Assembly: GCA_001552015.1 (NCBI GenBank) | Contig: CP010514.1 | Location: 510,001 to 542,000 of the forward strand | Source of the DNA: Candidatus Nanopusillus acidilobi | GTDB taxonomy: Archaea > Nanobdellota > Nanobdellia > Nanobdellales > Nanobdellaceae | Reading direction: 5' to 3' | DNA length: 32,000 nucleotides | In this document: one piece after another, positions 7,925-30,283 of the stretch | Layout: every line of letters starts with the position of its first letter | Position numbering within the stretch: position 1 is the first letter of the stretch | Notes under the pieces: model-generated | What the model was told of the DNA's origin: nothing | Database searches by the model: none | The model's input: only the letters and a program-made list of their open reading frames with translations | Translations under genes and position numbers: made by a program

Positions 7925-8544
7925 TAGATTTATTGTTCTTCTATGTATTATTTTTGGTTATATTAGTAACTATAGTAATAAAAATAATTGAAAGACTAAC
8001 TGGAATAAAAGAACATCAGAAAAAATTACAAGAAATACAGAAAAAATACATTGAAAGTTTTAAATCTGGAAAAATAGAGGAATTAAATAATATTATGGAA
8101 GAACTTACAAAAGTATATTCAAAAGTAATGAAACATACAATGATTGTTACTATAATTGGGATAATTATATTAATTTTTGTTATTTTCGGCTTTCAATCAG
8201 GGTTCTATGTTACAAATATAAATAATACAACAAGTGTACTAATAACAAATCCAATATTATATAACCAAGATTTTGCTATATATTATAATAAGAGTTTTCT
8301 AGGATTTTATCATGCAAATTACAATATAATAAGTTTAAATGGAACATACGAAGCAAAATTATTATCTATAAATTCTATAACAAACACATTACCATTTAAT
8401 TTGCCAATAATAAATATAAATTGGTTAAATCCTTTAATTCTATATATAATATTATATATTTTGGTACAGATTTTCTTATTAATATTTAATATCATTTACT
8501 CAAGATTTATAAAAAAATCTAAAATAGATAATAAAAATGGCTAA
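7921..8544 (+). CDS. DUF106 / archaeal YidC-Oxa1-EMC3-like membrane insertase candidate
   Basis: 207 aa with the order TM1, then a charged coiled-coil (KEHQKKLQEIQKKYIESFKSGKIEELNNIMEEL), then TM2, a loop and TM3 (LPFNLPIININWLNPLILYIILYILV). It occupies the conserved position downstream of secY. Its start overlaps the secY stop (ATGA). Confidence 0.6.
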   Translation: MIDLLFFYVLFLVILVTIVIKIIERLTGIKEHQKKLQEIQKKYIESFKSGKIEELNNIMEELTKVYSKVMKHTMIVTIIGIIILIFVIFGFQSGFYVTNINNTTSVLITNPILYNQDFAIYYNKSFLGFYHANYNIISLNGTYEAKLLSINSITNTLPFNLPIININWLNPLILYIILYILVQIFLLIFNIIYSRFIKKSKIDNKNG

Positions 8545-9435: not shown

Positions 9436-9507
9436 GGGCCCGTAGTCTAGTGGTAGGATTCTGGCCTCGCTAGCCAGAGGTCCCGGGTTCAAATCCCGGC
9501 GGGTCCA
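9436..9507 (+). tRNA. tRNA-Ala (anticodon CGC), no encoded CCA
   Basis: Hand-folded. Acceptor GGGCCCG/CGGGTCC with the G3:U70 alanine identity pair; anticodon stem CTGGC/GCCAG with loop CTCGCTA; T arm CCGGG-TTCAAAT-CCCGG; discriminator A. Confidence 0.9.
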
Positions 9508-9981: not shown

Positions 9982-10422
9982 TTAATAATGTAAAAGCATC
10001 CTTTCTCTTTTATTATTAAGAGGATTCTCTCTAAATAAAAAATAATATGATTTACTATACACGCATCTATTAATAAGTTCCGCTACACGTTCTGGTCCAA
10101 TATCAAATATTTCTTCGATATAATTATACCTAAAATACTTTTCTGCAAATTCTCTTCCTGAATTTTCATAACGTTTATAATTTATATTCATATATTTTAG
10201 CATTTTTTTAATTGAGCTTCTCTTATTTTTAAATAGCATAATTAATTCCTCTCCATAACCCAAATATTCCAATACTTCTTCAATTTTTATTTCTCCTACT
10301 TCACATACTCTAAGATTTTCACATTCTTTTATAAATCCTTTTGTAAAATAATATATAGCTGCAGGATTTATATTTTCTATATCATCTCCTATTATACTAT
10401 CTAAACTATCTGATTTTCTCAT
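9982..10422 (-). CDS. hypothetical protein
   Basis: 146-aa ORF that fills the gap between neighbouring genes. No family is recognised. Confidence 0.45.
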   Translation of the reverse strand: MRKSDSLDSIIGDDIENINPAAIYYFTKGFIKECENLRVCEVGEIKIEEVLEYLGYGEELIMLFKNKRSSIKKMLKYMNINYKRYENSGREFAEKYFRYNYIEEIFDIGPERVAELINRCVYSKSYYFLFRENPLNNKRERMLLHY

Positions 10423-16729: not shown

Positions 16730-19700
16730 CTAAATTAAAAATATTATTGATCCAATTATTCCTGCTAGTATTAATATATAATTAATATTTTCTGATACAA
16801 CCAATGAAGATTTATTTGAAGGTTCATTTACAATTAAATTATATTGTGCAGTTCCAATATTTTGTCCATTTACATTGAAGTTTAATAATAATGAAGAAGA
16901 TCCAATATATAATGGTAATACACTAAATTGTAATATATATGATTGATTTGGTTGTAATTGATCTATATTTATATTATTTGATGATTGTATTGGAATTTGA
17001 TTATATAATATTTCTGGTACATTTCCCATTTGTTGTAAATTTATTGTAATATTGTTTAATGTTGTATTTCCTATATTTGTTATATTTAATGCTAAAATAT
17101 ATTCTGGATAATCTAAACTAAATTCTAAATTATTTCCAATTGGTCCATATGTAGTATTTATATTAATTGGTTGAATATTTGCTTGTAATTTAATTATACC
17201 ATAATAAATGTATGTTTGAGTTACATTTAAATTAAATATTTCTGTTACACAATTAAATTGTCCATTTGTTAATGCAGAACATACAGTTATATTTCCATTA
17301 TTTGAATATGGTAAACTTAAATTAAATGAATAATAATTTGTATTTAAATTATTATTTGAATATACATTATTGTTATTATAATATACATTTATTGATTGAA
17401 TATTTTGATTTGATCCATTTACTGAAATTGTTGTATTTATATTTTGATTTGTTGCATTTAATATATTAATATCTATAATTGGAACCGTTATTCCTGATGA
17501 AGGTATATTTAAGTTAATTGTATTCGAATTAACACAATTTCCATTATAACATCCTTGTGCATATACTGAATAACTTCCTAGATATGAAACAATACATAAA
17601 GCATTTATATTTTGAAATTGATAATATGAATCGTAACAATATGGAGAATTATTTACATATAATGTATAATTTTGAGAACAACCTGTTATATAGATATTAT
17701 ATGAATTTTGAAAGTTTGAACTTTGCTGAGATGAGATAGAAATTTGCTGACCTACATTATAAGTATATGTTGATGATGCTGAAGATCCTGGTATTGAAGC
17801 TGTTACTGTTACTGAATATGAACCTGGAGATGTTGTTGGAGATGAATTTACATATAATGTTGCTGAACAGGAAGATCCACTAGTAGTACATGATGGATTA
17901 AGTGAACATGTTATACCAGAAGGTGCTGAACAATAAAAATTAACTGTTGTAGATAGTTCATAAGGATTATTTAAATTAACAGTCACTGTGGAATTCGTTT
18001 GAGTACCTGGACAAACTGGAGAAGAACTTGATGGATTTAATTGAACAGATGAGACTGAAACTACAGGCTGTATAGAAATACTAGGCATTATACCATTTGG
18101 GGGATATGATCTAGCAACTACCCATTCTACATATTGATAGGATTCAGAACCATCAGAATCCCCAGCACCTATTTCTAATGTACCATATTGGAAAGGATTA
18201 TAATTTAAATTAGAATATGTATATCCATTATTATTTACATTATATGTATTTAATAATGTTAATGGAACCCATACTTGATTAGAATTATAAATATAATATC
18301 CTGTTTGTGCATAAGATGAATTAACTATTAAATATGAATAAATCGTTCCTCCAGATGTTGGGAAAGGTGTATAATTTAAATATTGATCTGTTACTGCAGA
18401 TTTTAACATAGCCGCTCCACCAGTGGGGGGAGAACCATAATATTCAAATTGTACATATGTAGATAAATTAGATGCTGGTGTAACACCACCACAAGTAGTA
18501 TCCATTCCTCCTGTAATATTTACTCCACCACAGTAACCAGGAATAGTTGCAATTTGATAAGCCTCAATTTGTTGATTTGTATTTCCAAATAATGCTATTA
18601 CATTTGCATCTGAACTCTGAGTATAATACCAAGCTTCTTCAACAATCAAAGGTATTTCTGGAATATTCCAATTATTTGGAGGTAAAATATATGTACCTTC
18701 AGCAGTTTGATTGTTTAACATTTCAATACCGTTTGAAGTTGCTGTAGGAGACCAGGCCGCAGAAGTAACATATCCACTCCATCCATCAAATGTATTATCA
18801 AAATATCCATATACTATAAACACATCTTGTCCATTATCATATCCTGAAATTACCTGAGGAGATGTACCTACATATGGATAATACTGAGAATAATAATTAG
18901 CACTAGTAGGACCTATATACATATATATCGTTACATTACTATTAGCTGATATTCCTGTAGATATATTTATCCACCATACGTCACAGTATACTCCATTATA
19001 ATTTAATTGACCTTCATACCATGAATAGATTTTTGGGATACTCTCAAGAGTTGTTGTAAAGTATATATTTGATCCATTACTATTAATTTCATTAAATAAA
19101 TCAGCATTATTTATATATGCAAAACTATTACCAATATTTATACTTCCATTACATATTGCTATATCTTGTTGGAAAGGTGCTGGCGTTGCTTGAGATTGAG
19201 TATTTGTTATAGTAACTGCATACCAATTAACTTCTGAATCTAAAATAATTGAAGGCATTACACCATTTGGAGGATATGCTCTAGCTAATAAGTATTGAAA
19301 AACAGAACTAGAAGTGCCACTACTATGTGCTGTAACCAGTAATCCAATATATCCTTGTGATGCCATAGATGTAGGAGTTACGCAACTACCTTCTTGAGAT
19401 AAAACCCCTAAAGAACTTCCATAGAATCCACAAGCATAACTTGAATTTGGAAATACTAGTGCAAGAATTGTAGGATATGTTATACTATTACCATTATAAT
19501 TACCTGATGGCGCTATATAACTAGTTCCAGATTGCCATTGAATTGCATAGCCATTTCCATCAGTAACTATCATATCAACTTCTCCATTAGAATCTGATGA
19601 ATCAGTTACCTGATTTTGATAAAGTATTCCAGCTTTAGTCCAACCACTATCTCCAGAATTTCCTGTTAAAGATAAAACTTTTGCTTCTACAATTGCGGGT

Positions 19701-20377
19701 ATTGATATTGGCTGATTATAATACAAATATGTAATCATATAGTAATTATCCCAAAAATCTTGACCATTTGTATTAGATATTGTAACTCCATTATTTACTG
19801 AACACGATCCTGAAGCTCCTGAAGGATTACTCAGTACTGTACAAACTAAATTATTTGGTAAAGTTGCACCTGCGAAATTCCAATAATTATTAAATACGTA
19901 ATTACCATTATCATATTCTCCATAGGTAGGTGATAGCTGGGGAGCTTCTCCCACGTATGGAAAGTATTCGGCGTAATAATTAGCACTACTACTTCCTATA
20001 TACATATATATCGTTACATTACTATTAGCTGATATTCCTGTAGATATATTTATCCACCATACGTCACAGTATACTCCATTATAATTTAATTGACCTTCAT
20101 ACCATGAATATATATTTGGAGAACTTTCGTTTGTAGCAAAGTAAATGTTAGATCCATTAGCATTGATCTCATTAAATAATGTTGGATTATCCAAATAAGC
20201 AAATGATGAGCCAACACTTAAGGATCCATTACATATTGCTATATCTTGTTGGAAAGGTGCAGGAGTTGGCATATTTTGATTATTTGTTATAGTAACTGCA
20301 TACCATCCCTGTGAATATACAAATCTTGGTATTAAAATAACCATTAATCCAAATATAAATATCTTTAATAATTTCAT
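16730..20377 (-). CDS. large secreted surface protein, paralog 1: signal peptide, two DUF2341/ConA-like modules, Cys-rich block, C-terminal module, C-terminal TM anchor
   Basis: 1215 aa. Sec-type signal MKLLKIFIFGLMVILIPRFVYS|QG. The WYAVTITNxQ..PAPFQQDIAICNG...YSWYEGQLNYNGVYCDVWWINIS...TIYMYIG module occurs twice. It has many N-x-S/T sequons and ends in NINYILILAGIIGSIIFLI. Confidence 0.88.
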   Translation of the reverse strand: MKLLKIFIFGLMVILIPRFVYSQGWYAVTITNNQNMPTPAPFQQDIAICNGSLSVGSSFAYLDNPTLFNEINANGSNIYFATNESSPNIYSWYEGQLNYNGVYCDVWWINISTGISANSNVTIYMYIGSSSANYYAEYFPYVGEAPQLSPTYGEYDNGNYVFNNYWNFAGATLPNNLVCTVLSNPSGASGSCSVNNGVTISNTNGQDFWDNYYMITYLYYNQPISIPAIVEAKVLSLTGNSGDSGWTKAGILYQNQVTDSSDSNGEVDMIVTDGNGYAIQWQSGTSYIAPSGNYNGNSITYPTILALVFPNSSYACGFYGSSLGVLSQEGSCVTPTSMASQGYIGLLVTAHSSGTSSSVFQYLLARAYPPNGVMPSIILDSEVNWYAVTITNTQSQATPAPFQQDIAICNGSINIGNSFAYINNADLFNEINSNGSNIYFTTTLESIPKIYSWYEGQLNYNGVYCDVWWINISTGISANSNVTIYMYIGPTSANYYSQYYPYVGTSPQVISGYDNGQDVFIVYGYFDNTFDGWSGYVTSAAWSPTATSNGIEMLNNQTAEGTYILPPNNWNIPEIPLIVEEAWYYTQSSDANVIALFGNTNQQIEAYQIATIPGYCGGVNITGGMDTTCGGVTPASNLSTYVQFEYYGSPPTGGAAMLKSAVTDQYLNYTPFPTSGGTIYSYLIVNSSYAQTGYYIYNSNQVWVPLTLLNTYNVNNNGYTYSNLNYNPFQYGTLEIGAGDSDGSESYQYVEWVVARSYPPNGIMPSISIQPVVSVSSVQLNPSSSSPVCPGTQTNSTVTVNLNNPYELSTTVNFYCSAPSGITCSLNPSCTTSGSSCSATLYVNSSPTTSPGSYSVTVTASIPGSSASSTYTYNVGQQISISSQQSSNFQNSYNIYITGCSQNYTLYVNNSPYCYDSYYQFQNINALCIVSYLGSYSVYAQGCYNGNCVNSNTINLNIPSSGITVPIIDINILNATNQNINTTISVNGSNQNIQSINVYYNNNNVYSNNNLNTNYYSFNLSLPYSNNGNITVCSALTNGQFNCVTEIFNLNVTQTYIYYGIIKLQANIQPININTTYGPIGNNLEFSLDYPEYILALNITNIGNTTLNNITINLQQMGNVPEILYNQIPIQSSNNINIDQLQPNQSYILQFSVLPLYIGSSSLLLNFNVNGQNIGTAQYNLIVNEPSNKSSLVVSENINYILILAGIIGSIIFLI
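17249..17829. repeat. 581-bp block identical to 20520..21100 (C-terminal module of paralogs 1 and 2)
   Basis: Direct line-by-line comparison at an offset of 3271 bp. It also explains the identical spurious 60-aa ORFs at 17557..17739 and 20828..21010. Confidence 0.88.
17842..18138. repeat. 297-bp block identical to 22163..22459 (Cys-rich block plus end of the preceding module)
   Basis: Direct comparison at an offset of 4321 bp. It encodes ...YVEWVVARSYPPNGIMPSISIQPVVSVSSVQLNPSSSSPVCPGTQTNSTVTVNLNNPYELSTTVNFYCSAPSGITCSLNPSCTTSGSSCSATLYVNS. Confidence 0.88.
18913..19028. repeat. 116-bp intragenic block identical to 19995..20110 (between the two modules of paralog 1)
   Basis: Direct comparison at an offset of 1082 bp. 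Both copies encode IYSWYEGQLNYNGVYCDVWWINISTGISANSNVTIYMYIG. Confidence 0.85.
19995..20110. repeat. 116-bp intragenic block identical to 18913..19028
   Basis: Same comparison. Confidence 0.85.
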
Positions 20378-20597
20378 TTTTTATTATAGTATTATTTACT
20401 TATAAAATTTATCATAAAGTATAATTTACATAAATGGAAATTGAAATATTGTATCATCCTACAATTATCCCATAATATGTAACAATTTTTATTATATTAA
20501 AATATAGTAATTGAAGTATACAATTAAATTGTCCATTTGTTAATGCAGAACATACAGTTATATTTCCATTATTTGAATATGGTAAACTTAAATTAAA
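20226..20597. repeat. 372-bp cassette (3' tail of the upstream paralog, 76-bp intergenic promoter, first 152 nt of the next paralog) identical to 23461..23832
   Basis: Direct comparison at an offset of 3235 bp. Confidence 0.88.
20398..20424 (-). promoter_or_regulatory. putative archaeal promoter of paralog 1 (TATA-like TTTTATAA plus a conserved upstream ACTTTATGATAAA element)
   Basis: On the minus strand, TTTTATAA lies 23-30 nt upstream of the ATG. That spacing suggests a leaderless or very short-leader mRNA. A related element is conserved upstream of paralog 3. Confidence 0.4.
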
Positions 20598-23500
20598 TGA
20601 ATAATAATTTGTATTTAAATTATTATTTGAATATACATTATTGTTATTATAATATACATTTATTGATTGAATATTTTGATTTGATCCATTTACTGAAATT
20701 GTTGTATTTATATTTTGATTTGTTGCATTTAATATATTAATATCTATAATTGGAACCGTTATTCCTGATGAAGGTATATTTAAGTTAATTGTATTCGAAT
20801 TAACACAATTTCCATTATAACATCCTTGTGCATATACTGAATAACTTCCTAGATATGAAACAATACATAAAGCATTTATATTTTGAAATTGATAATATGA
20901 ATCGTAACAATATGGAGAATTATTTACATATAATGTATAATTTTGAGAACAACCTGTTATATAGATATTATATGAATTTTGAAAGTTTGAACTTTGCTGA
21001 GATGAGATAGAAATTTGCTGACCTACATTATAAGTATATGTTGATGATGCTGAAGATCCTGGTATTGAAGCTGTTACTGTTACTGAATATGAACCTGGAG
21101 TTAGAGCAGATAGTGATATGGAAATTGAAGGCATTACATCATTTGGGGGTAAAGATCTTAATAAAACCCAATACAAATAAATATTACCACCGTCCTCTTG
21201 TTGTCCTATTGTTATTGGTAAACTAAATGAACCAGGTATTATTGTAGTACTTAATACCTGAGTATAATTTACTAGGAAATATGTATTACTACTAGAAAAT
21301 CCAATACTATACATTGTAGGGACATAACTATAATTTACACTTCCCAAACTACTACTAGTTCCTACTACTAAACTAAATACACCAGTTCCCCCACCCGAAA
21401 ATGCAGCACCATCATTATTTCCTCCAGCTATTATTCCTCCACCTGGTCCCATAAAGTATGTATTCGGAATATTTGCTGCTCCTACTCCCAGAACCATCCA
21501 TTGATAACCTGTATTAGTGTTATAATTTGGAACAGATGCATAAATATCTACTACATTATTTTGTAAATTATAATTATTTGTAGTAGTTATACCATCGTTA
21601 CCGTGGTTAGAACTAAGAGGTAGAATAATTGTATAATCTGTAGAAAATGAAACATTCTTTTGATTACCACATATATATGTCCAACCTGAAGGTAAAGAAC
21701 TTAAACCCCCAAAATTTTGATAATAATTAAATACATAATTTCCATTATCATATTGAGATATACCTAAAACTTGTATTGGAGTACCAACATAAGGATAATA
21801 CTGAGAATAATAATTAGCATTATTTGGTCCTATATACATATATATAGTTATCTTTGAATTAGCAGGTATTCCATTTGGTAAATTTATCCACCAAATATCA
21901 CAATATACTCCATTATAATTTAATTGACCTTCATACCATGAATATATATTTGGTGTACTGTTATAAGGCGTAGCAAAATAAACATTTGATCCATTAATAT
22001 TAATTAAATTAAATAATGTTGCATTATCTATATATGCAAAATTAGGACCAATATTAATATTGCCATTACATATTGCTATATCTTGTTGGAAAGGTGCAGG
22101 AGTTGGAATAGATTGAGTATTTGTTATAAAAATAGGATACCATCCCGATGGTAATTGGATAAATGAATTTACATATAATGTTGCTGAACAGGAAGATCCA
22201 CTAGTAGTACATGATGGATTAAGTGAACATGTTATACCAGAAGGTGCTGAACAATAAAAATTAACTGTTGTAGATAGTTCATAAGGATTATTTAAATTAA
22301 CAGTCACTGTGGAATTCGTTTGAGTACCTGGACAAACTGGAGAAGAACTTGATGGATTTAATTGAACAGATGAGACTGAAACTACAGGCTGTATAGAAAT
22401 ACTAGGCATTATACCATTTGGGGGATATGATCTAGCAACTACCCATTCTACATATTGATCTGTAGATATATCACCAGTGCCATCTCCCGCACCTATTTCT
22501 AATGTACCATATTGGAATGGGTTATAATTTAAGCCTGCATAAGTATATCCAGAGATTCCATTATTTATATTAGTAGTATTATATACATTATAGGTATATG
22601 TATCTAATAATGTTAATGGAACCCATACTTGATAAAGAGAATTATAAATATAATATCCTGTTTGTGCATAAGATGAATTAACTATTAAATATGAATAAAC
22701 TGTTCCTCCATTTGGTGGAAAGTATGTATAATCTAAATATTGATCTGTTACTGCAGATTTTAGCATTGCTGCTTCAGAAGATGGTTGAGAAGCACCAATA
22801 TAATATTCAAATTGTGCAAATGTGGATGAACTAGATGCAGGTGTATCACCACCATAAGTAGATCCAATATTACGTGCATAAATTTGTTGACTTGTATTTC
22901 CAAATAATGCTATTACATTTGCATCTGCTCCCCCATTATTATACCAAGCTTCTTCAACAATTAAAGGTATTTTTGGAATATTCCAATTATTTGGAGGTAA
23001 AATATAAGTACCTCCATATTGTCCATCATTTATCATTTCAATACCGTTTGAAGTTGCTGTAGGAGACCAGGCCGCAGAAGTAACATATCCGCTCCATCCA
23101 TCAAATGTATTATCAAAATATCCATATACTATAAATACATCTTGACCATTATCATATTGCATAGTTCCAATAACTTGCTCATTAGTTCCTACATAAGGAT
23201 AATATTGAGAATAATAGTTTGTATTATAACTTCCAATTGCCATATATATAGTTATCTTTGAATTAGCAGGTATTCCATTTGATAAATTTATCCACCAAAT
23301 ATCACAATATACTCCATTATAATTTAATTGACCTTCATACCATGAATATAAAATATTTCCAGAACTATTTACAAAATATACATTTTGCCCATTTGGATTT
23401 ATTTCATTAAATAAAGCAGCATTATTTATATATGCAAAATTAGGACCTATATTAACATTGCCATTACATATTGCTATATCTTGTTGGAAAGGTGCAGGAG

Positions 23501-23612
23501 TTGGCATATTTTGATTATTTGTTATAGTAACTGCATACCATCCCTGTGAATATACAAATCTTGGTATTAAAATAACCATTAATCCAAATATAAATATCTT
23601 TAATAATTTCAT
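20454..23612 (-). CDS. large secreted surface protein, paralog 2: signal peptide, DUF2341-like module, Cys-rich block, second DUF2341-like module, truncated C-terminal module (no long TM-anchor extension)
   Basis: 1052 aa. The first 51 aa are identical to paralog 1, and it shares 581-bp and 297-bp blocks with paralog 1 at 100% identity. It ends ...TYYGIIVG. Confidence 0.88.
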   Translation of the reverse strand: MKLLKIFIFGLMVILIPRFVYSQGWYAVTITNNQNMPTPAPFQQDIAICNGNVNIGPNFAYINNAALFNEINPNGQNVYFVNSSGNILYSWYEGQLNYNGVYCDIWWINLSNGIPANSKITIYMAIGSYNTNYYSQYYPYVGTNEQVIGTMQYDNGQDVFIVYGYFDNTFDGWSGYVTSAAWSPTATSNGIEMINDGQYGGTYILPPNNWNIPKIPLIVEEAWYNNGGADANVIALFGNTSQQIYARNIGSTYGGDTPASSSSTFAQFEYYIGASQPSSEAAMLKSAVTDQYLDYTYFPPNGGTVYSYLIVNSSYAQTGYYIYNSLYQVWVPLTLLDTYTYNVYNTTNINNGISGYTYAGLNYNPFQYGTLEIGAGDGTGDISTDQYVEWVVARSYPPNGIMPSISIQPVVSVSSVQLNPSSSSPVCPGTQTNSTVTVNLNNPYELSTTVNFYCSAPSGITCSLNPSCTTSGSSCSATLYVNSFIQLPSGWYPIFITNTQSIPTPAPFQQDIAICNGNINIGPNFAYIDNATLFNLININGSNVYFATPYNSTPNIYSWYEGQLNYNGVYCDIWWINLPNGIPANSKITIYMYIGPNNANYYSQYYPYVGTPIQVLGISQYDNGNYVFNYYQNFGGLSSLPSGWTYICGNQKNVSFSTDYTIILPLSSNHGNDGITTTNNYNLQNNVVDIYASVPNYNTNTGYQWMVLGVGAANIPNTYFMGPGGGIIAGGNNDGAAFSGGGTGVFSLVVGTSSSLGSVNYSYVPTMYSIGFSSSNTYFLVNYTQVLSTTIIPGSFSLPITIGQQEDGGNIYLYWVLLRSLPPNDVMPSISISLSALTPGSYSVTVTASIPGSSASSTYTYNVGQQISISSQQSSNFQNSYNIYITGCSQNYTLYVNNSPYCYDSYYQFQNINALCIVSYLGSYSVYAQGCYNGNCVNSNTINLNIPSSGITVPIIDINILNATNQNINTTISVNGSNQNIQSINVYYNNNNVYSNNNLNTNYYSFNLSLPYSNNGNITVCSALTNGQFNCILQLLYFNIIKIVTYYGIIVG
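20520..21100. repeat. 581-bp block identical to 17249..17829
   Basis: Same comparison. Identity ends at ...gaacctggag, after which the two copies diverge. Confidence 0.88.
22163..22459. repeat. 297-bp block identical to 17842..18138
   Basis: Same comparison. Confidence 0.88.
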
Positions 23613-23832
23613 TTTTTATTATAGTATTATTTACTTATAAAATTTATCATAAAGTATAATTTACATAAATGGAAATTGAAATATTGTATCATCCTACAAT
23701 TATCCCATAATATGTAACAATTTTTATTATATTAAAATATAGTAATTGAAGTATACAATTAAATTGTCCATTTGTTAATGCAGAACATACAGTTATATTT
23801 CCATTATTTGAATATGGTAAACTTAAATTAAA
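23461..23832. repeat. 372-bp cassette identical to 20226..20597
   Basis: Same comparison. Confidence 0.88.
23633..23659 (-). promoter_or_regulatory. putative promoter of paralog 2 (identical copy of 20398..20424)
   Basis: It is part of the 372-bp identical cassette. Confidence 0.4.
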
Positions 23833-23930
23833 ATTGTTACTATTATTATAAGACTGAAGATTTACTATATTAAAGATATTAATATATAAATTTGGAATTT
23901 TTATTCCAATAGTTTTATATTTAAATTACT
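23689..23930 (-). pseudogene. decayed C-terminal module of paralog 3, separated from the 23931..25703 ORF by a TGA and a frameshift
   Basis: Manual translation: after the TGA the same frame reads SNLNIK, and the other frame reads ..TIGIKIPNLYINIFNIVNLQSYNNSNNFNLSLPYSNNGNITVCSALTNGQFNCILQLLYFNIIKIVTYYGIIVG*. This parallels NSNTINLNIPSSGITVPIIDINILN...FNLSLPYSNNGNITVC of paralogs 1 and 2. The last 144 nt are identical to the paralog 2 tail. Confidence 0.55.
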
Positions 23931-25703
23931 TCATGTCATATTAGATGAACAAGAATAAGTATAGCTTGTAGAAATATTAGAACTATTTAAATTAATTATT
24001 GTTATTGATGATATTTGATTTATAGGATAAATATAAGAAGTAGATGGAAGTGTTTGAGTAAATGAAGAACCTGTTAATGTTTGAGTTATGGAATAAATAG
24101 ATGAAGAAACGATAGAAGTTGTTGTTGATGTAGAAGTTACTGTAGTTGTTGCTGTTGTATAAACAGTACTAGTAACTGTTTGAGTACTTGTGATTGTTGA
24201 ATAAATTGTTGAAGTAGATGTTAATGTAGTGATTAAAGTAGTATATACAGTACTGATGACTGTATTTGTAGATGTTAATGTGGTTGTTACTGTACTAGTA
24301 ACTGTATTATAAACAGTACTAGTTGTTGTAGATGTAGCAGTAACTGAAGATGTAACAGTTGTTGTTGTAGTAATAGTAGAATAAACAGTTAACGTACTAG
24401 TGATTGTAGATGTAGAAGTCAATGTAGTGGTTACCGTAGTAGTTATTGTTGACGTCTGAGTTACTGTAGAAGTTGAGGTCGTAACTGTAGAAGTTGTTTG
24501 AGTAGATGAGACAGAGACTGGTTGTATAGAAATACTAGGCATTACATCATTTGGAGGATATACTCTAGCTATTACCCATTCTACATATTGATATGATGTT
24601 TCAGAATGAGACATTTCAAGATATCCATCTCCTGCACTTATTTCTAATGTGGGATATTGATAAGGATTATAATTTAAACTAGAATATGTATATCCATTAT
24701 TATTTACTGTATAAGTATCTAATAATGTTAAAGGAGCCCATACTATAGCAAAAGGAGAATAAATATAATATCCTGCTTGTGCATATGTTGAATTAATAAT
24801 TAAATATGAATAAATCGTTCCCCAATATTCATAAAAAGGTATAAAACTTAAAATTTGATTTGTTACTGCAGATTTCAAGTACGTTACACCACTATAATAA
24901 TCAAATTGTACAAATGTAGATAAATTGGATGCGGGAGTATTATCACTACTAGTATTTCCAATAAGACTTACATTAATTTGTTGATTTGTATTTCCAAATA
25001 ATGATATTGCATTTGACTGCCCTCCAAAAGTATACAACCAGGCTTCTTCAACAATTAATGGTATTTTTGGAATATTTCCATTATTTGGAGGTAAAATATA
25101 TGTACCTTCATTTTGCCCATTATTTAGCATTTCAATACCAAGTGGAGTTGCTTTAGGAGACCAAAATCCATAATAATTATATCCACTCCATCCATCAAAT
25201 GTATTATCAAAATATCCATATACTATAAATACATCTTGACCATTATCATATCCTGAAATTACTTGAGGAGAAGCACCTACATAAGGATAATATTGAGAAT
25301 AATAATTTGAAGAGCTATTTCCTATATACATATAAATAGTTACACCTGAATTTGCTGGAATTCCTTGAGGTATATTAATCCACCATACATCACATGTTAC
25401 TCCATTATAATTTAATTGACCTTCATACCATGAATATAAAATATTTCCAGAACTATTTACAAAATAAACATTCTGTCCATTTGAATCTATTTCATTAAAT
25501 AATGTTGCATTATCTATATATGCAAAATTAGGACCTATATTAACATTGCCATTACATATTGCTATATCTTGTTGGAAAGGCGCGGGTGTTGCCTGAGATT
25601 GATTATTTGTTATAGTAACTGCATACCAACCCTGTGAATATATAAATTTAACTACTAATAAGAAAATTATTGATGCAAATATAAATTTCTTTAACAACTT
25701 CAT
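23931..25703 (-). CDS. secreted surface protein, paralog 3: signal peptide, DUF2341/ConA-like module, Thr/Ser/Val-rich stalk
   Basis: 590 aa. Signal MKLLKKFIFASIIFLLVVKFIYS|QG, the same module architecture as paralogs 1 and 2, then about 140 aa of T/S/V low-complexity sequence. Confidence 0.82.
   Translation of the reverse strand: MKLLKKFIFASIIFLLVVKFIYSQGWYAVTITNNQSQATPAPFQQDIAICNGNVNIGPNFAYIDNATLFNEIDSNGQNVYFVNSSGNILYSWYEGQLNYNGVTCDVWWINIPQGIPANSGVTIYMYIGNSSSNYYSQYYPYVGASPQVISGYDNGQDVFIVYGYFDNTFDGWSGYNYYGFWSPKATPLGIEMLNNGQNEGTYILPPNNGNIPKIPLIVEEAWLYTFGGQSNAISLFGNTNQQINVSLIGNTSSDNTPASNLSTFVQFDYYSGVTYLKSAVTNQILSFIPFYEYWGTIYSYLIINSTYAQAGYYIYSPFAIVWAPLTLLDTYTVNNNGYTYSSLNYNPYQYPTLEISAGDGYLEMSHSETSYQYVEWVIARVYPPNDVMPSISIQPVSVSSTQTTSTVTTSTSTVTQTSTITTTVTTTLTSTSTITSTLTVYSTITTTTTVTSSVTATSTTTSTVYNTVTSTVTTTLTSTNTVISTVYTTLITTLTSTSTIYSTITSTQTVTSTVYTTATTTVTSTSTTTSIVSSSIYSITQTLTGSSFTQTLPSTSYIYPINQISSITIINLNSSNISTSYTYSCSSNMT
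24100..24515 (-). repeat. degenerate Thr/Ser/Val-coding low-complexity repeat inside paralog 3
   Basis: It encodes TTSTVTTSTSTVTQTSTITTTVTTTLTSTSTITSTLTVYSTITTTTTVTSS... The plus strand shows reiterated gttgt/agtag/tgtag units. Confidence 0.7.
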
Positions 25704-25791: not shown

Positions 25792-27120
25792 ATGGAAATT
25801 GAAATTTTCCCAATAGGTGGATATTCATATATAGGAAAAAATATGAGTGCAATAAGAATTGATGATAAAATAATTATAATAGATATTGGAATAAATGTAG
25901 ATAAAATATCTCAATTTGGAGAAAGAGAAGATATAACAGATAAACCATTAAAGGAATTATATGATTTAGATATAATACCAGATGACTCAATTTTAGAAAA
26001 TTATAAAGATAAAGTAAAGGCAATAATATTAACACATGGGCATTTAGATCATATAGGAGCAGTAAATTTTATTGCACCAAAATATAATGCACCAATATAT
26101 GCATCTCCATATACAATTGAACTAATAAAACAACAAGAAAAAGAATATGGAATTGTCTTACCAAATGATTTAAAGAAAATATCTCCAAATTCTTCAATTA
26201 AAATTTCAGAAGATATTTCAATTAATTTTATCAATATTACTCATTCAATTCCACAATCATTAATGATTGATATTCAAACAAATAAAGGACATATAGTATT
26301 TTCAGGTGATTTTAAATTTGATAATTTCCCAATCATTGGTAAAAAACCTGACAAAGAAAAATTAAAGAAAATTGGAAAAGAAGGAGTTTTATTATTAATT
26401 TCTGAAACAACAAGAGCAGATGAAAATTCAAAATCTCAATCAGAAATTATTGAAAAATATATGTTATATGATGTATTAAATTCAATAGATACAAAAGGAA
26501 TAATTATAACAACATTTTCATCACATATTGCAAGATTAAAATCAATAATTGAATTATCAAAAGAAATAAATAGAAAACCAATATTTATTGGAAGAAGCTT
26601 AGGAAAATATATTAGCGCAGCAGAAAATATTAATTTGTATAATTTTTCTCAAGAAGCAGAAGTATATTTTGATCCAAGAGATTATAAAAAAGTTTTTGAA
26701 AGAGTAGAAAAAAATAAGGAAGAATATTTATTAATTGTTACCGGACATCAAGGGGAACCAGGTTCTGTTTTAGATAGATTAGCAAGAGGAGAATATAATT
26801 TTGATCTAAGTAATACAACAATAATATTTGCAAATAATGTAATTCCTCATCCAATAAATGAAGCAAATAGAAAAATATTGGAAGAAAGATTAAAGAGAAA
26901 AAAAGCAGAAATAATAAAGGATGTACATATATCTGGTCATGCAAAAAGTCAGGATCATATAATGTTATTAAAAATGCTAGATCCTGAATATATAATACCA
27001 AATCATGGAGATATAAATAAAAAAGCCTCATATTATAATATTGTATCAGATTATGGATATACATTGGGAGAAGATGTATTTTTCTTAGAAGATTATCAGA
27101 GAAAAATATTTAATATATAA
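25792..27120 (+). CDS. rnj: metallo-beta-lactamase / beta-CASP ribonuclease, archaeal RNase J-like
   Basis: 442 aa. HGHLDHIGA motif, GDFKFD, a beta-CASP region and C-terminal HISGHA and PNHGD motifs. Its size fits archaeal RNase J. Confidence 0.82.
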   Translation: MEIEIFPIGGYSYIGKNMSAIRIDDKIIIIDIGINVDKISQFGEREDITDKPLKELYDLDIIPDDSILENYKDKVKAIILTHGHLDHIGAVNFIAPKYNAPIYASPYTIELIKQQEKEYGIVLPNDLKKISPNSSIKISEDISINFINITHSIPQSLMIDIQTNKGHIVFSGDFKFDNFPIIGKKPDKEKLKKIGKEGVLLLISETTRADENSKSQSEIIEKYMLYDVLNSIDTKGIIITTFSSHIARLKSIIELSKEINRKPIFIGRSLGKYISAAENINLYNFSQEAEVYFDPRDYKKVFERVEKNKEEYLLIVTGHQGEPGSVLDRLARGEYNFDLSNTTIIFANNVIPHPINEANRKILEERLKRKKAEIIKDVHISGHAKSQDHIMLLKMLDPEYIIPNHGDINKKASYYNIVSDYGYTLGEDVFFLEDYQRKIFNI

Positions 27121-27135
27121 AGGTAATATATTTTT

Positions 27136-27654
27136 ATGAAATCTATACATATTTACATTGAATATATTTTAATAATCCTATTATCTGTATTTACATTTTA
27201 TTTTGTTTTTACATGGTGGAACAATAATAAAATATATGCAATAAATTTCAATAATCAAAATAAATTTCAATATGATTCAAATTATATAGAAAATGTATTA
27301 AATAATTTAGAAGATGACTTATATTTTAATATAAATTTTAATTTAAATGGATATTATATATATTGTTTAAATAATTTAACATTAATTAAATCAAATAATT
27401 TTTGTAAAACAACATTAAATAATCTAACATATCAGGGGGAATTAATATATTCATATGGAAACTATTATGTATATGATCCAAAGATGAATGGATATTATTT
27501 ATTAGAAAACAATAATAATATTACATTGTATGGATGTTTTGAGAATTATTTATCATTAATAATATTGACAAATAATTGTACAGGAGTATGTTATGGGAAT
27601 TGTAATTTAAATATAGTTAAAAATCAAACATCAATTTATTCAATAATACAATGA
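27136..27654 (+). CDS. small secreted/membrane protein with N-terminal hydrophobic helix (type IV pilin-like or FlaF/FlaG-like candidate), Cys/Asn/Tyr-rich
   Basis: 172 aa. The N-terminus MKSIHIYIEYILIILLSVFTFYFVF is followed by a polar Asn/Tyr-rich domain with 7 Cys. It is the first gene of an operon ending in the filament ATPase and platform genes. Its stop overlaps the next start (ATGA). Confidence 0.45.
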   Translation: MKSIHIYIEYILIILLSVFTFYFVFTWWNNNKIYAINFNNQNKFQYDSNYIENVLNNLEDDLYFNINFNLNGYYIYCLNNLTLIKSNNFCKTTLNNLTYQGELIYSYGNYYVYDPKMNGYYLLENNNNITLYGCFENYLSLIILTNNCTGVCYGNCNLNIVKNQTSIYSIIQ

Positions 27655-27890
27655 AAACTCAATTATTATTAGAACAAGTATTATTTATTTTTTTGGTTTT
27701 ATTATTTATATCTGGTTCTTTAATATTTTATTATAACTATCTAAATAATTTAAATTATAAAAATTCATTAATAAAAAACCAAATATATAATTTAACATTG
27801 GAAGATGCAAAATTAAATAATCAATCAAATTTATTCTATTATCAAGGTTATTACTATCCAGTTGGTACTATAATAATTAAAAATTCATAG
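27651..27890 (+). CDS. small protein with N-terminal hydrophobic helix (pilin-like candidate)
   Basis: 79 aa. MKTQLLLEQVLFIFLVLLFISGSLIF has a short basic N-terminus and then a hydrophobic helix with Glu near its start, reminiscent of a class III signal. Confidence 0.4.
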   Translation: MKTQLLLEQVLFIFLVLLFISGSLIFYYNYLNNLNYKNSLIKNQIYNLTLEDAKLNNQSNLFYYQGYYYPVGTIIIKNS

Positions 27891-27905
27891 ATAGGTTAAA
27901 ATTAT

Positions 27906-29453
27906 ATGAAAAAAATTGTTGCAGAAGAAATATTAAAATATTTTGATAATGAAATAAAAAATGAATCTTTTATACCAAATATAAAATCCGATATTGATAA
28001 ATCAAAAATTGATATAATTTATCCACTAATTGGGAAACTTGCATATGCACATGTTTATTATGATAATATATCTGAAGAACTTGTATATGAATTATTAGAG
28101 CCTGAATTATCTGATGAAGAAAGAATACTAATAGAAAAAATAAAACAATATGTTTTGGATGAAATGTACAAAGATCCTGAAGAATTTCTAAATAAAAATA
28201 AAGAATATGTATTAATAAAGAAATTGGAAGAATTTGTAAATAGATATAAGATAAAAATAAATAGAGATATGTTCATAAAATATTATTATTATTTATGGAG
28301 AGACATGCTGGGATTTGAAAAAATTCATCCATTATTTTATGATATATTTATTGAAGATATTTCATGTGATGGATATGATATACCAATATATGTACATCAT
28401 AATAAATTTGGAATATTAAGGACAAATATAATTTTATCTAGGGATGAATTAGATAAATTTATAGTAAAATTAGCTCAAAAGGCTGGAAAACATATATCAT
28501 ATGCAGAACCAATTCTAGATGCAACATTACCAGATGGATCAAGAATAAATGCAACATACTCACAAGAAATTACTACACAGGGTCCAACATTTACAATAAG
28601 AAAATTCAAAAAACAGATGCTATCATTAGTAGATCTAATAAAATTAAATATGCTAGATTCTGAAATTGCTGCATATTTATGGACATTAGTAGAATATAGA
28701 GCAAATATATTAATTGCAGGTTCTACATCTTCTGGAAAAACTACATTATTAAATTCAATTGCACAATTTATACCACCAGAAGCAAAGGTAATATCTATTG
28801 AAGATACAAGAGAATTACAGTTATATCATGAAAATTGGATTCCTGCAACAACAAGAAAAGGTTTCTTTGTTGGAGATAAATATTATGGGGAAATTGATAT
28901 GTATAAATTACTATCAGAATCTTTTAGACAAAACCCAGATTATGTAATTGTTGGAGAAGTAAGAGGAGAGGAAGCATATGTAATGTTCCAGGGTATGGCT
29001 TCTGGTCATTCTGCACTATCAACTATACATACTGATAGCTGGAGAGCATTAATAAGAAGATTAACAACAGCACCAATTAATTTAACTCCAGATCATATTG
29101 CATTATTAGATGCTGTAATATTTGCAATGAGAGCAAGGAATATTTCTCCATCTGCTAGAAGAATAAGGGAAATTATTGAAGTAGGAAAATATTTAAATGG
29201 AAAGATTGAAAATGAAACAGTCGTAAAATGGAATTTTGAAGATGATACATTTGAGAAAAAAGATCTTGGAAAATATACTGAAGAAACATTAAAATATAGG
29301 GTTGGATCGAATATAAGTTTTAAGGATTCAATAGAAGAGAAAAAAGAGGTAATAGATTATTTAGTAAATAAAAATATAAGAGAAAATAAAAAAATTGCTG
29401 AATATATAAAGCTATATTATACAGATAAAGATTCTTTATTGAAAAAAATATGA
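27906..29453 (+). CDS. type IV filament / secretion ATPase of the FlaI(ArlI)/PilB/GspE-VirB11 superfamily
   Basis: 515 aa. Walker A GSTSSGKTTLLN, Asp box VISIEDTRELQLYHENW, Walker B DYVIVGEVRGEEA, His box GHSALSTIH, and an archaeal FlaI-like N-terminal region (EDISCDG...IYVHH...DATLPDGSRINAT...FTIRKF). Confidence 0.88.
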   Translation: MKKIVAEEILKYFDNEIKNESFIPNIKSDIDKSKIDIIYPLIGKLAYAHVYYDNISEELVYELLEPELSDEERILIEKIKQYVLDEMYKDPEEFLNKNKEYVLIKKLEEFVNRYKIKINRDMFIKYYYYLWRDMLGFEKIHPLFYDIFIEDISCDGYDIPIYVHHNKFGILRTNIILSRDELDKFIVKLAQKAGKHISYAEPILDATLPDGSRINATYSQEITTQGPTFTIRKFKKQMLSLVDLIKLNMLDSEIAAYLWTLVEYRANILIAGSTSSGKTTLLNSIAQFIPPEAKVISIEDTRELQLYHENWIPATTRKGFFVGDKYYGEIDMYKLLSESFRQNPDYVIVGEVRGEEAYVMFQGMASGHSALSTIHTDSWRALIRRLTTAPINLTPDHIALLDAVIFAMRARNISPSARRIREIIEVGKYLNGKIENETVVKWNFEDDTFEKKDLGKYTEETLKYRVGSNISFKDSIEEKKEVIDYLVNKNIRENKKIAEYIKLYYTDKDSLLKKI

Positions 29454-30283
29454 ATTTTTTAGTAAAAAAACTATACCCATATTTTAAGGATAAAAAATAT
29501 GATATATTTTATACGCAATTTAAAACTTCAATTGAAGATTATATAAAAACAACATTAGAATACTCTTTCTTAACTTTTTTCTTATCTTTTCTATCTTTAT
29601 CATTAATATTTATTTTCTATCTAAATTTCTATAATATAGTATTATTTTCTGTAAGTATACTATTTGGGATTATTGTTGGTTTTTTAACATTTATTTATTT
29701 TTATATTTATCCATCATTAGCAAAAGCTGATTATATAAAAGATATAGAAGATAATTTACCATTCTTTGCATTATACTTTTATTCATATTCAGGTTCCCAA
29801 ATGAATATAATAGATATATTTAAATTATTAAATAAAGAAAAAAGATTTGGAGCAATAAATAAAGAAATTTCATATTTATTAATATTGATTAATAATTTTG
29901 GATATGATATTTTATCTGCATTATTAGAATTAGCTCAAAAAACTCCTTCAGAAAAATTCAAGGAATTTCTATATGGATTAATATCAGTAATTAGATCTGG
30001 AGGTTCTTTAAAAGATTTTGCAAGAATATATGCAAAACAAAATTTAGAAGATTATGAATTACAATTAAAGGAATATAATGAAAAAGTTAACTTATGGGTA
30101 ACATTATATGCATTTTTCTTTATAACATTCCCAATGGTATTACTAATTTTAGCATTTCTATTTTCAATTGCATCAGGAAATATGAATATTTTAAATTCAT
30201 TATTATTTTTCTTTATTGTAATTATACCATTTTCATATATTACATACTTATATATGATACATATATATCAACCAAAGATTTAG
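29450..30283 (+). CDS. type IV filament platform protein, FlaJ(ArlJ)/TadC-like, single T2SSF domain
   Basis: 277 aa. It has N-terminal TM helices, one cytoplasmic T2SSF-like domain (EDNLPFFALYFYSYSGSQMN...LLELAQKTPSEKFKEFLYGLISVIRSGGSLKDF) and C-terminal TM helices. Its start overlaps the ATPase stop (ATGA). Confidence 0.72.
   Translation: MNFLVKKLYPYFKDKKYDIFYTQFKTSIEDYIKTTLEYSFLTFFLSFLSLSLIFIFYLNFYNIVLFSVSILFGIIVGFLTFIYFYIYPSLAKADYIKDIEDNLPFFALYFYSYSGSQMNIIDIFKLLNKEKRFGAINKEISYLLILINNFGYDILSALLELAQKTPSEKFKEFLYGLISVIRSGGSLKDFARIYAKQNLEDYELQLKEYNEKVNLWVTLYAFFFITFPMVLLILAFLFSIASGNMNILNSLLFFFIVIIPFSYITYLYMIHIYQPKI

Follow-up and report, generated by a model that had tools for sequence, protein, structure and literature searches.

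Analysis of a 32,000-nucleotide stretch of the Candidatus Nanopusillus acidilobi genome (the window) revealed an array of three paralogous genes, here called P1, P2, and P3, which encode exported, all-beta, multidomain proteins. N. acidilobi is a cultivated ectoparasite of the crenarchaeote Acidilobus (PMC4935971); its genome of 605,887 bp is a closed hybrid assembly from PacBio (8- to 10-kb inserts) and MiSeq data. We propose, with a probability of about 55%, that P1 to P3 are exchangeable ligand-binding, probably glycan-binding, adhesins. This proposal is carried by the findings that the array has recombined, that evolution has been far more rapid in the variable modules of the proteins (heads), which also have an older coalescence, than in the other parts, and that the heads belong to a pool common to cells and viruses.

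The array encodes three exported modular proteins

P1 (Nps_03070; AMD30013.1; 1215 amino acids; positions 16730 to 20377), P2 (Nps_03075; AMD30014.1; 1052 amino acids; positions 20454 to 23612), and P3 (Nps_03080; AMD30015.1; 590 amino acids; positions 23931 to 25703) are encoded by open reading frames (ORFs) on the minus strand, as are all array features described below. The ORFs match NCBI proteins exactly, and all three products are called hypothetical there. A first-pass annotation made from the nucleotide sequence had placed three same-strand genes at exactly these limits without naming the strand; its observation of an array was borne out as a whole and its interpretation in part. Comparison of the paralogs with each other by BLASTP gave E values of 0 to 1e-75. 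In a published list, P1, P2, and P3 appear as "Uncharacterized protein" with 2, 1, and 1 transmembrane segments, respectively, and all three are assigned to one Nst1 gene, Nst1_264 (PMC4935971 Supplementary Data 1).

The building blocks are combined differently in each protein. P1 consists of a signal peptide (SP), a conserved domain (An), a body of class S1, a second An, a body of class L, the stalk domains K, C1, and C2, and a transmembrane helix (TM), in the order SP-An-S1-An-L-K-C1-C2-TM. The architecture of P2 is SP-An-L-K(first two thirds)-An-S2-K(last third)-C1-short tail, without C2 and TM. P3 is composed of SP-An-L and a Thr/Ser-rich stalk that ends in SCSSNMT, again without TM. The modular design recognized at first pass was confirmed, but the C-terminal membrane anchor attributed to the family is complete in P1 alone, since P2 ends after C1 and P3 after the stalk. 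The signal peptide of P1 (MKLLKIFIFGLMVILIPRFVYSQ; positions 20309 to 20377), as read from the sequence, is of the Sec type and identical to that of P2 (23/23 residues), whereas that of P3, although described earlier as near-identical, is merely related and one residue longer. By eye, the leader is Sec-like, with MKLLK, a hydrophobic core, and the junction VYSQ|GWY, and the mature protein starts with the conserved beta-strand GWYAVTITN.

Lysine and arginine together account for 0.9 to 1.4% of P1 to P3 versus 13 to 19% of most neighboring proteins, which are probably cytoplasmic. P1, P2, and P3 carry 31, 19, and 11 N-glycosylation sequons, respectively, a density of 1.8 to 2.6 per 100 amino acids; most of the lysine/arginine-rich neighbors carry 0 to 0.4 per 100 amino acids. 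The proteins had been called sequon-rich, and the density is indeed high, but there is no excess over their N/S/T-rich composition, as shuffling of each sequence gave 29.6 ± 4.7, 23.9 ± 4.1, and 14.5 ± 3.0 sequons. The Asn/Ser/Thr-rich and almost Lys/Arg-free make-up is that expected of glycosylated, acid-exposed extracellular proteins, and P1 to P3 are probably heavily glycosylated. N. acidilobi cells bind wheat-germ agglutinin (WGA), and their proteome is abundant in glycosylation enzymes (PMC4935971).

The GC content of the heads amounts to about 30 to 33% versus 20 to 25%, with the excess located in codon positions 1 and 2. The GC content at codon position 3 (GC3) is 0.09 to 0.12 in the heads (0.20 in one An) versus 0.07 to 0.105 in housekeeping genes. 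A recent foreign origin by composition was rejected because the GC3 of the heads is native-like. Likewise, a horizontal origin from the crenarchaeal host, which had been raised for checking, left no sign, the head GC3 resembling that of native genes.

The heads join a conserved domain to a variable body with a predicted lectin-like fold

The recurring module of about 380 amino acids noted at first pass was found in five copies of 347 to 391 amino acids, namely, P1 residues 24 to 384 and 385 to 775, P2 residues 24 to 412 and 490 to 836, and P3 residues 25 to 398. The motifs quoted for it (PFQQDIAICNG, YSWYEGQLNYNG, WWIN, and the terminal R..PPN..MPSI) are invariant. The first 125 to 150 residues or so form the conserved part, An, with the pattern GWYAVTITN..TPAPFQQDIAICNG..YSWYEGQLNYNG..WWIN..IYMYIG..YPYVG. 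It is followed by a conserved linker (YDNG..VF..Y.NF), a variable body of 200 to 260 amino acids that falls into the discrete classes S1, S2, and L, and a conserved module end (W..R.YPPNG.MPSI).

In P1, An of head 1 (residues 24 to 150; positions 19928 to 20308) is a DUF2341-type beta-sandwich, modeled by AlphaFold2 with a local confidence score (pLDDT) of about 96 (model m329128f22a41) and with homologs that pass the Pfam DUF2341 profile. The body of head 1 (residues 151 to 384; positions 19226 to 19927) is of class S1 and is assigned to the concanavalin A (ConA)-like jelly rolls by its Foldseek matches. Head 2 comprises an An delimited by alignment and model (residues 385 to 509; positions 18851 to 19225) and a body of class L (residues 510 to 771; positions 18065 to 18850; model m355ca1ea3feb, pLDDT of about 85). 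The heads are followed by K (residues 772 to 885; positions 17723 to 18064), which contains 5 Cys, is Ser/Thr-rich, and is predicted to form an Ig/PKD-like beta-sandwich (pLDDT of about 90), and by the Asn-rich C1 (residues 886 to 1062; positions 17192 to 17722), which contains 7 Cys and 8 sequons and for which an all-beta model of low confidence was obtained (pLDDT, 50 to 65). A block of six cysteines, as first described, was not recovered; the cysteines are distributed as 5 in K and 7 in C1. The C2 beta domain (residues 1063 to 1190; pLDDT of about 80) and the C-terminal transmembrane helix (residues 1191 to 1215) occupy positions 16733 to 17191. The helix was predicted at model residues 815 to 830, its hydrophobic window score is 2.2, and this C2-helix part is 83 to 94% conserved among 12 homologs.

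P2 carries its second head (An and an S2 body, delimited by P1/P2 alignment) at positions 21105 to 22160 and ends in an alternative C-terminal tail (ILQLLYFNIIKIVTYYGIIVG, followed by the stop codon; positions 20457 to 20519) that is kept with conservative substitutions in the homologs P0001, P0005, P0018, P0023, and P0026. P3 consists of one head (An and an L body; positions 24519 to 25634), set apart by its synonymous divergence from a relative (see below), and a stalk of 195 amino acids with 63% Ser plus Thr (positions 23934 to 24518), which is 99% identical in nucleotide sequence to that of the same relative. Within the stalk, positions 24121 to 24419 contain degenerate 12-nucleotide and 39-nucleotide tandem repeats with 66 to 80% matches, a possible site of length variation.

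AlphaFold2 modeling of P1 residues 24 to 384 (An plus S1) from an alignment of 51 sequences gave a pLDDT of 90.4 and a pTM of 0.90. A Foldseek search of the PDB with this model matched the S1 half to ConA-like jelly rolls with E values of 6e-6 to 1e-4, TM-scores on target of 0.45 to 0.65, and a probability of 1.0. The matches were ERGIC-53 (E value of 6e-6), Emp46p/47p, VIP36, and legume lectins, including the Methanocaldococcus jannaschii legume-lectin domain, and further the lectin domains of Aap/SasG, GH16 glucanases such as the Pyrococcus furiosus laminarinase, and O-glycanases. The module body is thus predicted to have the two-sheet jelly-roll fold of ConA-like lectins and glucanases. The model of P1 residues 385 to 1215 had a mean pLDDT of 73.7 (An, about 75; L, about 85; K, about 90; C1, 50 to 65; C2, about 80) and ended in a helix; searched as a whole against the PDB, this 831-residue model retrieved nothing more specific than chains of beta-sandwiches (RPTPmu, complement, and transglutaminase) with TM-scores below 0.2.

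Profile searches of modules A3 and A1 against PDB sequences yielded nothing significant, and an NCBIfam search of the window proteins gave no match. The copies in the window score below the Pfam gathering threshold for DUF2341 (PF10102), with 17.3 bits for P3 residues 75 to 133 and 11 bits for P2 compared with the required 23.4. This threshold is passed by the module homologs P0004 (93.6 bits), P0059, P0088, P0072, and SIRV2 gp39 (26.7 bits), to which the module of P1 to P3 is homologous with E values of 1e-20 to 0. The suggested resemblance to DUF2341/ConA-like modules is therefore upheld by these homologs and by the model with a pLDDT of 90, although Pfam does not assign DUF2341 to the window copies themselves. 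Similarly, K remained below the gathering score of 23.5 for PKD (PF00801), with 17.1 bits in P2 and 11.5 bits in P1, and the YN1 homolog P0029 reached 27.8 bits. The Pfam family Laminin_G_3 was matched only in the distant relative P0093. A profile built from the five modules retrieved 1,251 proteins at an E value of ≤1e-3 and 74 at ≤1e-30 among 1.84 billion representatives. Many of the retrieved proteins contain the module several times, and most family members belong to Nanopusillaceae and other DPANN archaea.

P1, P2, and P3 have undergone recombination

Alignment of P1 and P2 revealed three perfect DNA runs of 297, 372, and 581 bp in alignments that are 81 to 88% identical overall and 60 to 87% identical outside the runs. 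By our own estimate, which is not tool output, a chance perfect run at such identity is about 25 to 35 bp long. The 372-bp run (positions 20226 to 20597, identical to 23461 to 23832) includes the end of C1, the whole intergenic region with its TATA-like box, the signal peptide, and the start of An. The 297-bp run (17842 to 18138, identical to 22163 to 22459) and the 581-bp run (17249 to 17829, identical to 20520 to 21100) are 12 nucleotides apart in P1 and 1,062 bases apart in P2, where the intervening segment (21101 to 22162) bears the second head, An-S2. In the model, this insertion falls in the K loop SSPTTSP between two predicted beta-strands.

The P2-P1 intergenic region (positions 20378 to 20453) contains the TATA-like sequence TTTTATAA about 26 nucleotides 5' of the P1 ATG and is 100% identical to positions 23613 to 23688 upstream of P2. 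From its sequence, it probably carries the promoter of P1. A scan for sigma-70 promoters and terminators, which is not applicable to archaea, gave counts below the shuffled expectation. Between P3 and P2, an untranslated 144-nucleotide remnant of the C1 3' end (positions 23689 to 23832) is identical to the last 144 nucleotides of P2. This remnant is part of the 372-bp duplication, in which the intergenic promoter region and 152 nucleotides from the start of the next gene are also included.

Different parts of one gene also have different histories. When P3 was compared with its counterpart on contig L004 of DS.bin.8, synonymous divergence (dS) was 0.006 in the stalk, 0.37 in An, and 0.36 in L, a contrast of about 60-fold within one gene. 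P1 and the homolog L038 are 65% identical in An and 83% identical in S1, which indicates that An and the body have separate histories. A diversity-generating retroelement was considered as a source of variation and rejected: the mismatches in four repeat pairs show no bias toward adenine, and the window ORFs contained no reverse transcriptase domain at an E value of ≤1e-5.

The RNase J-GlyRS slot varies in gene number and head class among relatives

In N. acidilobi, the genes P3, P2, and P1 fill the slot between the RNase J and GlyRS genes. Related genomes have one to three genes at this slot and at least four head classes (L, S2, P0016-type, and P0020-type) on one anchor. A single gene is present in Nanopusillus sp. 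RSNS12 (L001; An-L-K-C1-C2), in RHS.bin.5 (L002; An-S2-K-C1-C2), in Nst1 (L005; An-L-K-K-C2), and in the metagenome contigs L065 (P0009; L-class head) and L066 (P0016; a further head class). DS.bin.8 (L003 and L004) contains at least two, a P3-like gene followed by a canonical one. In YN1 and Nanobdella, RNase J adjoins GlyRS, and the family genes lie a few kilobases away. Taken with the exchanges within the array, these differences mark the slot as a hot spot at which the number of copies changes, head classes are replaced, and genes undergo conversion.

Among 12 canonical homologs, mean identity was 54% in the heads (38 to 82%), 71% in K, and 89% in the last 310 amino acids (83 to 94%), and the proteins flanking the slot are 92 to 97% identical. 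By Nei-Gojobori estimation, the flanking genes gave a nonsynonymous divergence (dN) of 0.012 to 0.031 and a dS of 0.14 to 0.21 (dN/dS of about 0.07 to 0.15), and C1 and C2 gave a dN of 0.04 to 0.07 and a dS of 0.14 to 0.19. In An, dN was 0.17 to 0.20 and dS 0.39 to 0.55 (dN/dS of about 0.3), and in the L body, the class found in head 2 of P1, dN/dS reached 0.55 to 0.70. Jarett et al. reported, in general terms, that nonsynonymous single-nucleotide polymorphisms are in excess in Nanoarchaeota genes for hypothetical surface proteins (PMC6142677).

The architectures without an anchor recur as well. The P3 architecture with the same ending is present on L004 of DS.bin.8, and the nested P2-type architecture is present in P0005 with S2 and in P0001 with S1. 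The exact C termini of P2 (ending in QLLYFNIIKIVTYYGIIVG) and of P3 (ending in SCSSNMT) recur elsewhere with conservative substitutions, which indicates conserved forms and not fresh pseudogenes. The P3-like gene on contig L003 of DS.bin.8 (224 to 1962) seems interrupted, with An at 224 to 595 and a long ORF that resumes at 748 without a start codon, and L004 holds an intact P3-like copy with a different head. This difference points to strain-level head polymorphism that broke the assembly.

Viruses and other archaeal phyla share the heads

The strongest links of the module outside its family were to viruses, a connection that the first-pass annotation did not mention in looking to DPANN and host genomes. 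A tblastn search with P1 against phage and virus genomes returned 46 records, by organism name viruses of Sulfolobales; the 15 of 46 matches listed were all rudiviruses, with 29 to 33% identity over the module and E values down to 3e-21. The match in SIRV2 is ORF564/gp39 (L044, 2311 to 4014), annotated as a DUF2341 domain-containing protein and encoded next after the tail-fiber gene gp38/ORF1070. SIRV2 gp39 is a minor virion protein encoded beside the tail-fiber gene gp38 (PMC5537682). The profile of the rudivirus P564/gp39 family, phrog_7548, matched P1 (E value of 3e-41 over profile positions 236 to 581), NV1_37 of Nanoarchaeotal virus 1 (NAV1; 1.6e-27), and P3 (5e-19). The match spans positions of about 236 to 585 of the 591 in the profile and leaves out its N-terminal third; in gp39, a single An plus ConA-like module stands behind about 235 unrelated residues. 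By analogy, gp39 is a candidate receptor-binding or fiber-associated protein.

When the An-S1 model was searched against a library of viral structures, the best matches were NV1_37 (TMq of 0.81) and the DUF2341 protein of SBRV1 (TMq of 0.64). They were followed by a "signal peptide protein" of SEV1, a "putative viral structural protein" of SPV2, TPX of TTV1, and minor tail/ConA-like proteins of Caudovirales. NV1_37 (gp37), a protein of 1,311 amino acids, comprises a signal peptide, an An that is 74% identical to that of the array proteins, a ConA-like body, and an unrelated C-terminal part of 880 amino acids. A narrow scan of IMG/VR with patterns from the five window modules gave no match; a broader scan with an A3 pattern found 15 loci on viral contigs.

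The C-terminal part of NV1_37 was found in 15 metagenomic proteins at 46 to 81% identity. Two of these 15, P0049 and P0061, were checked for their surroundings, and both contigs show the NAV1 gene order. The heads of the gp37 homologs fall into cellular classes, and several are closer to cellular heads than to any viral head: P0069 is 74% identical to P0016, P0046 is 69% identical to P0003, P0050 is 69% identical to P0009, and P0070 is 71% identical to P0015, whereas their best viral matches reach 55 to 62%. The best match of a viral head is thus often a cellular one, with 69 to 78% identity. The conserved 880-residue body of gp37 occurs with L-like, S2-like, P0016-like, and other heads, which indicates that heads have been swapped among viruses too. 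At the nucleotide level, viral and cellular heads are 70 to 81% identical; hence, there was no very recent exchange. The gp37 loci are L061 10001 to 13936 (NAV1, MN056826.1), L062 10001 to 13879, L063 10001 to 13504, and L064 826 to 4329, and gp37 follows an ORF of 1,614 to 2,082 amino acids without a Pfam match. A proviral nature of the array was rejected because NV1_37 is the only one of 16 NAV1 ORFs tested that resembles nanoarchaeal loci and because the array has housekeeping flanks with conserved synteny.

The S1 body is 60 to 65% identical in Marsarchaeota (L070, 1 to 2534, contig JAMCZQ010000002.1) and in Conexivisphaerales (P0057), where An is only 33 to 36% identical. The Marsarchaeota gene has a GC content of 46.6% on a 180-kb contig with 47% GC and is therefore native there. 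These sequence comparisons suggest an old cross-phylum transfer of the S1 body alone and a sharing of cassettes across phyla.

Possible functions of the array proteins

Each protein displays one or two distal heads, modeled as an An sandwich packed on a ConA-like jelly roll, on a conserved stalk. The heads are reshuffled by homologous recombination at the module borders (the GWY..ITN..PFQQ start, the YDNG..VF linker, and the R..PPNG.MPSI end), and the stalks and promoters are homogenized by gene conversion. Under the adhesin reading, the heads would be ligand binders, most likely lectins, that project beyond the S-layer, recognize the surface of a partner, and attach to it. The most probable partner, and the most economical target, would be the glycosylated envelope of Acidilobus. 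Its glycans differ from those of Nanopusillus: ConA and Dolichos biflorus agglutinin label the host Acidilobus, and WGA labels Nanopusillus (PMC4935971). Several exchangeable heads per array would tune or broaden specificity. P1 is anchored by its C-terminal transmembrane helix, and P2 and P3 would be retained noncovalently or released. A characterized S-layer or enzyme family with constant copy number and module order had been named as the finding that would speak against a variable surface family; no such family was found, and related genomes vary in copy number (one to three) and in module order.

Several points weigh against an adhesin function. The location of P1 to P3 at the cell surface and their contact with the host are what we infer, and P2 and P3 lack a membrane anchor. 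The residues that would bind a ligand could not be identified; against the variability of the body, no conserved site is conspicuous. Gene-wide dN/dS is below 1, and positive selection is not demonstrated. An enrichment of sequons beyond composition was rejected, the counts being those expected from shuffling. Because the heads are common to viruses that infect Nanopusillus, the relevant ligand may be on Nanopusillus and not on Acidilobus. Finally, P1, P2, and P3 were not detected in the published N. acidilobi proteome (PMC4935971). Each protein yields only one or two measurable tryptic peptides, so that this silence is uninformative; the same reason was given for the missing S-layer protein (PMC4935971).

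The strongest competitor, to which we give a distinctly lower but real chance, places the heads at the interface with viruses. The heads would then serve NAV1-like viruses as receptors, decoys, or homotypic partners, their diversity would result from an arms race, and the virus would repeatedly reacquire the current head class to keep binding. The signal peptide, closely related An, and ConA-like body of NV1_37 argue for this explanation, as do the cellular head classes of its 15 homologs, whose best matches are often cellular. DUF2341 proteins are also among the commonest cell-derived genes in viruses of Yellowstone hot springs (PMC11003980). However, the nucleotide identity between virus and cell does not fit very recent exchange, and the module is also present in rudiviruses of Sulfolobales and in free-standing DPANN proteins, so that a general role in adhesion explains the sharing equally well.

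A broader reading is put forward tentatively and considered doubtful. The three-level chain of crenarchaeal host, nanoarchaeal ectoparasite, and virus of the ectoparasite may draw on one pool of attachment heads, a mobile, general-purpose device for binding archaeal envelopes. Nanopusillus proteins and NAV1-like gp37 would repeatedly swap DUF2341 plus ConA-like cassettes. Related modules are present in the virions of rudiviruses, in further crenarchaeal viruses if judged by predicted fold (SEV1, SPV2, and TTV1), and in other archaeal phyla from hot springs. An arms race that ran, for instance, through homotypic recognition between heads or competition for one glycan ligand would have left its record in the variable array.

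A role of P1 to P3 as adhesins of a pilus, comparable to PilY1 or to proteins of the epd locus, appears improbable. In this case, P2 and P3, which lack an anchor, would travel on the filament of an adjacent type IV pilus (T4P)-like system. An operon of this kind, which is missing from the neighborhood described at first pass, lies 1.5 kb from the array on the plus strand (positions 27136 to 30283), past RNase J (25792 to 27120). It contains a pilin-like ORF of 172 amino acids that is Asn-rich (19.8%) and Cys-rich with an N-terminal hydrophobic segment, a second pilin-like ORF of 79 amino acids that includes MKTQLLLEQVLFIF, a T2SSE/PilB-type ATPase (27906 to 29453, plus strand), and a T2SSF/TadC-type platform protein (29450 to 30283, plus strand). 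Both Nanopusillus and Nanobsidianus keep this neighborhood, as in L001, L002, L005, and L065, and YN1 and Nanobdella keep a looser form of it. DUF2341 proteins are located in archaeal pilus loci and were proposed to be tip adhesins (PMC4858521), and in Methanococcus maripaludis, a screen for mutants defective in transformation recovered transposon insertions in a DUF2341 gene of the epd pilus locus (PMC10133366). Against these points, the signal peptides of the array look to be of the Sec type and not class III, P1 has its own transmembrane anchor, RNase J separates the array from the operon, and the two are divergently oriented. T4P genes were absent within 8 kb of all three distant family members checked, and a general linkage of the family to T4P was therefore not supported; adjacency is weak evidence in a 606-kb genome.

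It is less probable still that P1 to P3 form a nonspecific glycoprotein coat, structural, S-layer-associated, or part of a protective glycocalyx, whose variability reflects relaxed constraint. Their composition is typical of acid-exposed envelope proteins, dN/dS stays below 1 everywhere, and no binding site was identified, all of which a coat would accommodate. The window proteins, however, gave no Pfam or NCBIfam match to S-layer domains, and the predicted S-layer proteins of the group are other genes (Nps760 [PMC4935971], MJ1_0160/0707, and YN1_5000/2560). Relaxed constraint also leaves unexplained why intact, discrete head classes have moved between anchors, viruses, and phyla and why ORFs of 590 to 1215 codons remain intact in DNA with 25% GC.

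We see very little room for P2 and P3 as decaying duplicates or assembly artifacts of P1. They lack an anchor, a remnant of C1 follows P3, and long perfect repeats could mislead an assembler; yet the ORFs are intact, P2- and P3-type architectures with exact C termini recur in independent metagenomes and metagenome-assembled genomes, and the P2 insertion sits precisely in a loop between beta-strands. An assembly artifact is unlikely because the hybrid assembly is closed and the repeats do not exceed 581 bp in a 9-kb array. Secreted glycanases with a GH16-type jelly roll that cut host envelope glycans are the least credible alternative: the fold search ranked GH16 beta-1,3-glucanases and O-glycanases with its best matches, but strict and loose regular-expression scans found no GH16 catalytic motif (E-x-D-x(1,2)-E) in P1 to P3, no Pfam glycosyl hydrolase was matched, and the body shows hypervariability where an enzyme would keep its active site conserved; this enzyme reading was rejected on the missing motif.

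Comparison with known systems

Recombining variable surface adhesin and antigen loci exist in parasites with reduced genomes, for example, the MgPa repeats of Mycoplasma genitalium. Like these loci, the array keeps its anchor and promoter conserved, exchanges variable distal parts between tandem or dispersed paralogs, and has a high nonsynonymous diversity. It differs in that no archive of silent cassettes, invertible promoter, or phase-variable repeat was found in the array, all three copies look expressible, and exchange extends to viruses and other phyla. The array would be of an already known kind, recombining variable surface adhesins, to which exchange with viruses is added.

Rudivirus gp39 (phrog_7548, "structural protein") aligns over the whole An plus ConA-like module, but it belongs to viruses of Sulfolobales, carries one module behind its unrelated N-terminal residues, and lacks the stalk, K/C1/C2, and the transmembrane helix. 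NV1_37 resembles the array proteins in its signal peptide, An, and body classes and in the exchange of heads on a conserved body; it differs in its C-terminal 880 amino acids, which consist of Ig-like repeats and a multi-transmembrane part unrelated to K/C1/C2, and in its location in a viral gene block of structural appearance. The DUF2341 proteins of pilus loci (PF10102; arCOG03508; M. maripaludis MMJJ_08210) share the domain and a proposed adhesive role, and Makarova et al. likened them to PilY-type adhesins (PMC4858521). A pilus-like operon lies next to the array too, but three distant family members showed no such link to pili. They are encoded inside pilus operons, unlike the divergent array genes behind RNase J with their Sec-like leaders and the transmembrane anchor of P1. 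The L-type lectins (ERGIC-53, Emp46p/47p, VIP36, and M. jannaschii 7elv) have the same predicted jelly roll as the body (TM-score on target of 0.45 to 0.5), but identity is 9 to 14%, no Pfam lectin family was matched in P1 to P3, and the array body is fused to a DUF2341 domain.

The literature consulted, on DUF2341 and otherwise, describes neither the modular build of the family nor its hot-spot locus, neither the homology with gp39 of rudiviruses nor the head pool of viruses and cells; it did not include the description of NAV1, where the similarity of gp37 may be noted. Cryo-electron tomography papers state that the molecular basis of host recognition by DPANN archaea and Nanoarchaeota is unknown (PMC11329633, PMC11420986). 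P1 to P3, a small group of surface proteins with predicted lectin-like heads, are the best candidates for recognition of a partner cell by the parasite or its virus. As heads differ between otherwise near-identical strains, the dependence of host range on head class is testable in the N. acidilobi-Acidilobus coculture. Both the head classes that NAV1-like viruses have in common with the array and the homology with gp39 suggest the module as a candidate for receptor binding in several archaeal virus families.

Other features of the window

SecY, the translocon that P1 to P3 would use, is encoded 9 kb from the array (positions 6569 to 7924, plus strand). Five window ORFs of 146 to 562 amino acids had no Pfam match at an E value of ≤1e-5: 2751 to 4439 (plus), 1570 to 2169 (plus), 2149 to 2688 (minus), 7921 to 8544 (plus), and 9982 to 10422 (minus). 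The ORF of 562 amino acids is the largest unexplained gene of the window outside the array. Genes for tRNA-Ser(CGA) and tRNA-Ala(CGC) at positions 1456 to 1540 and 9436 to 9507, respectively, are part of the ordinary context.

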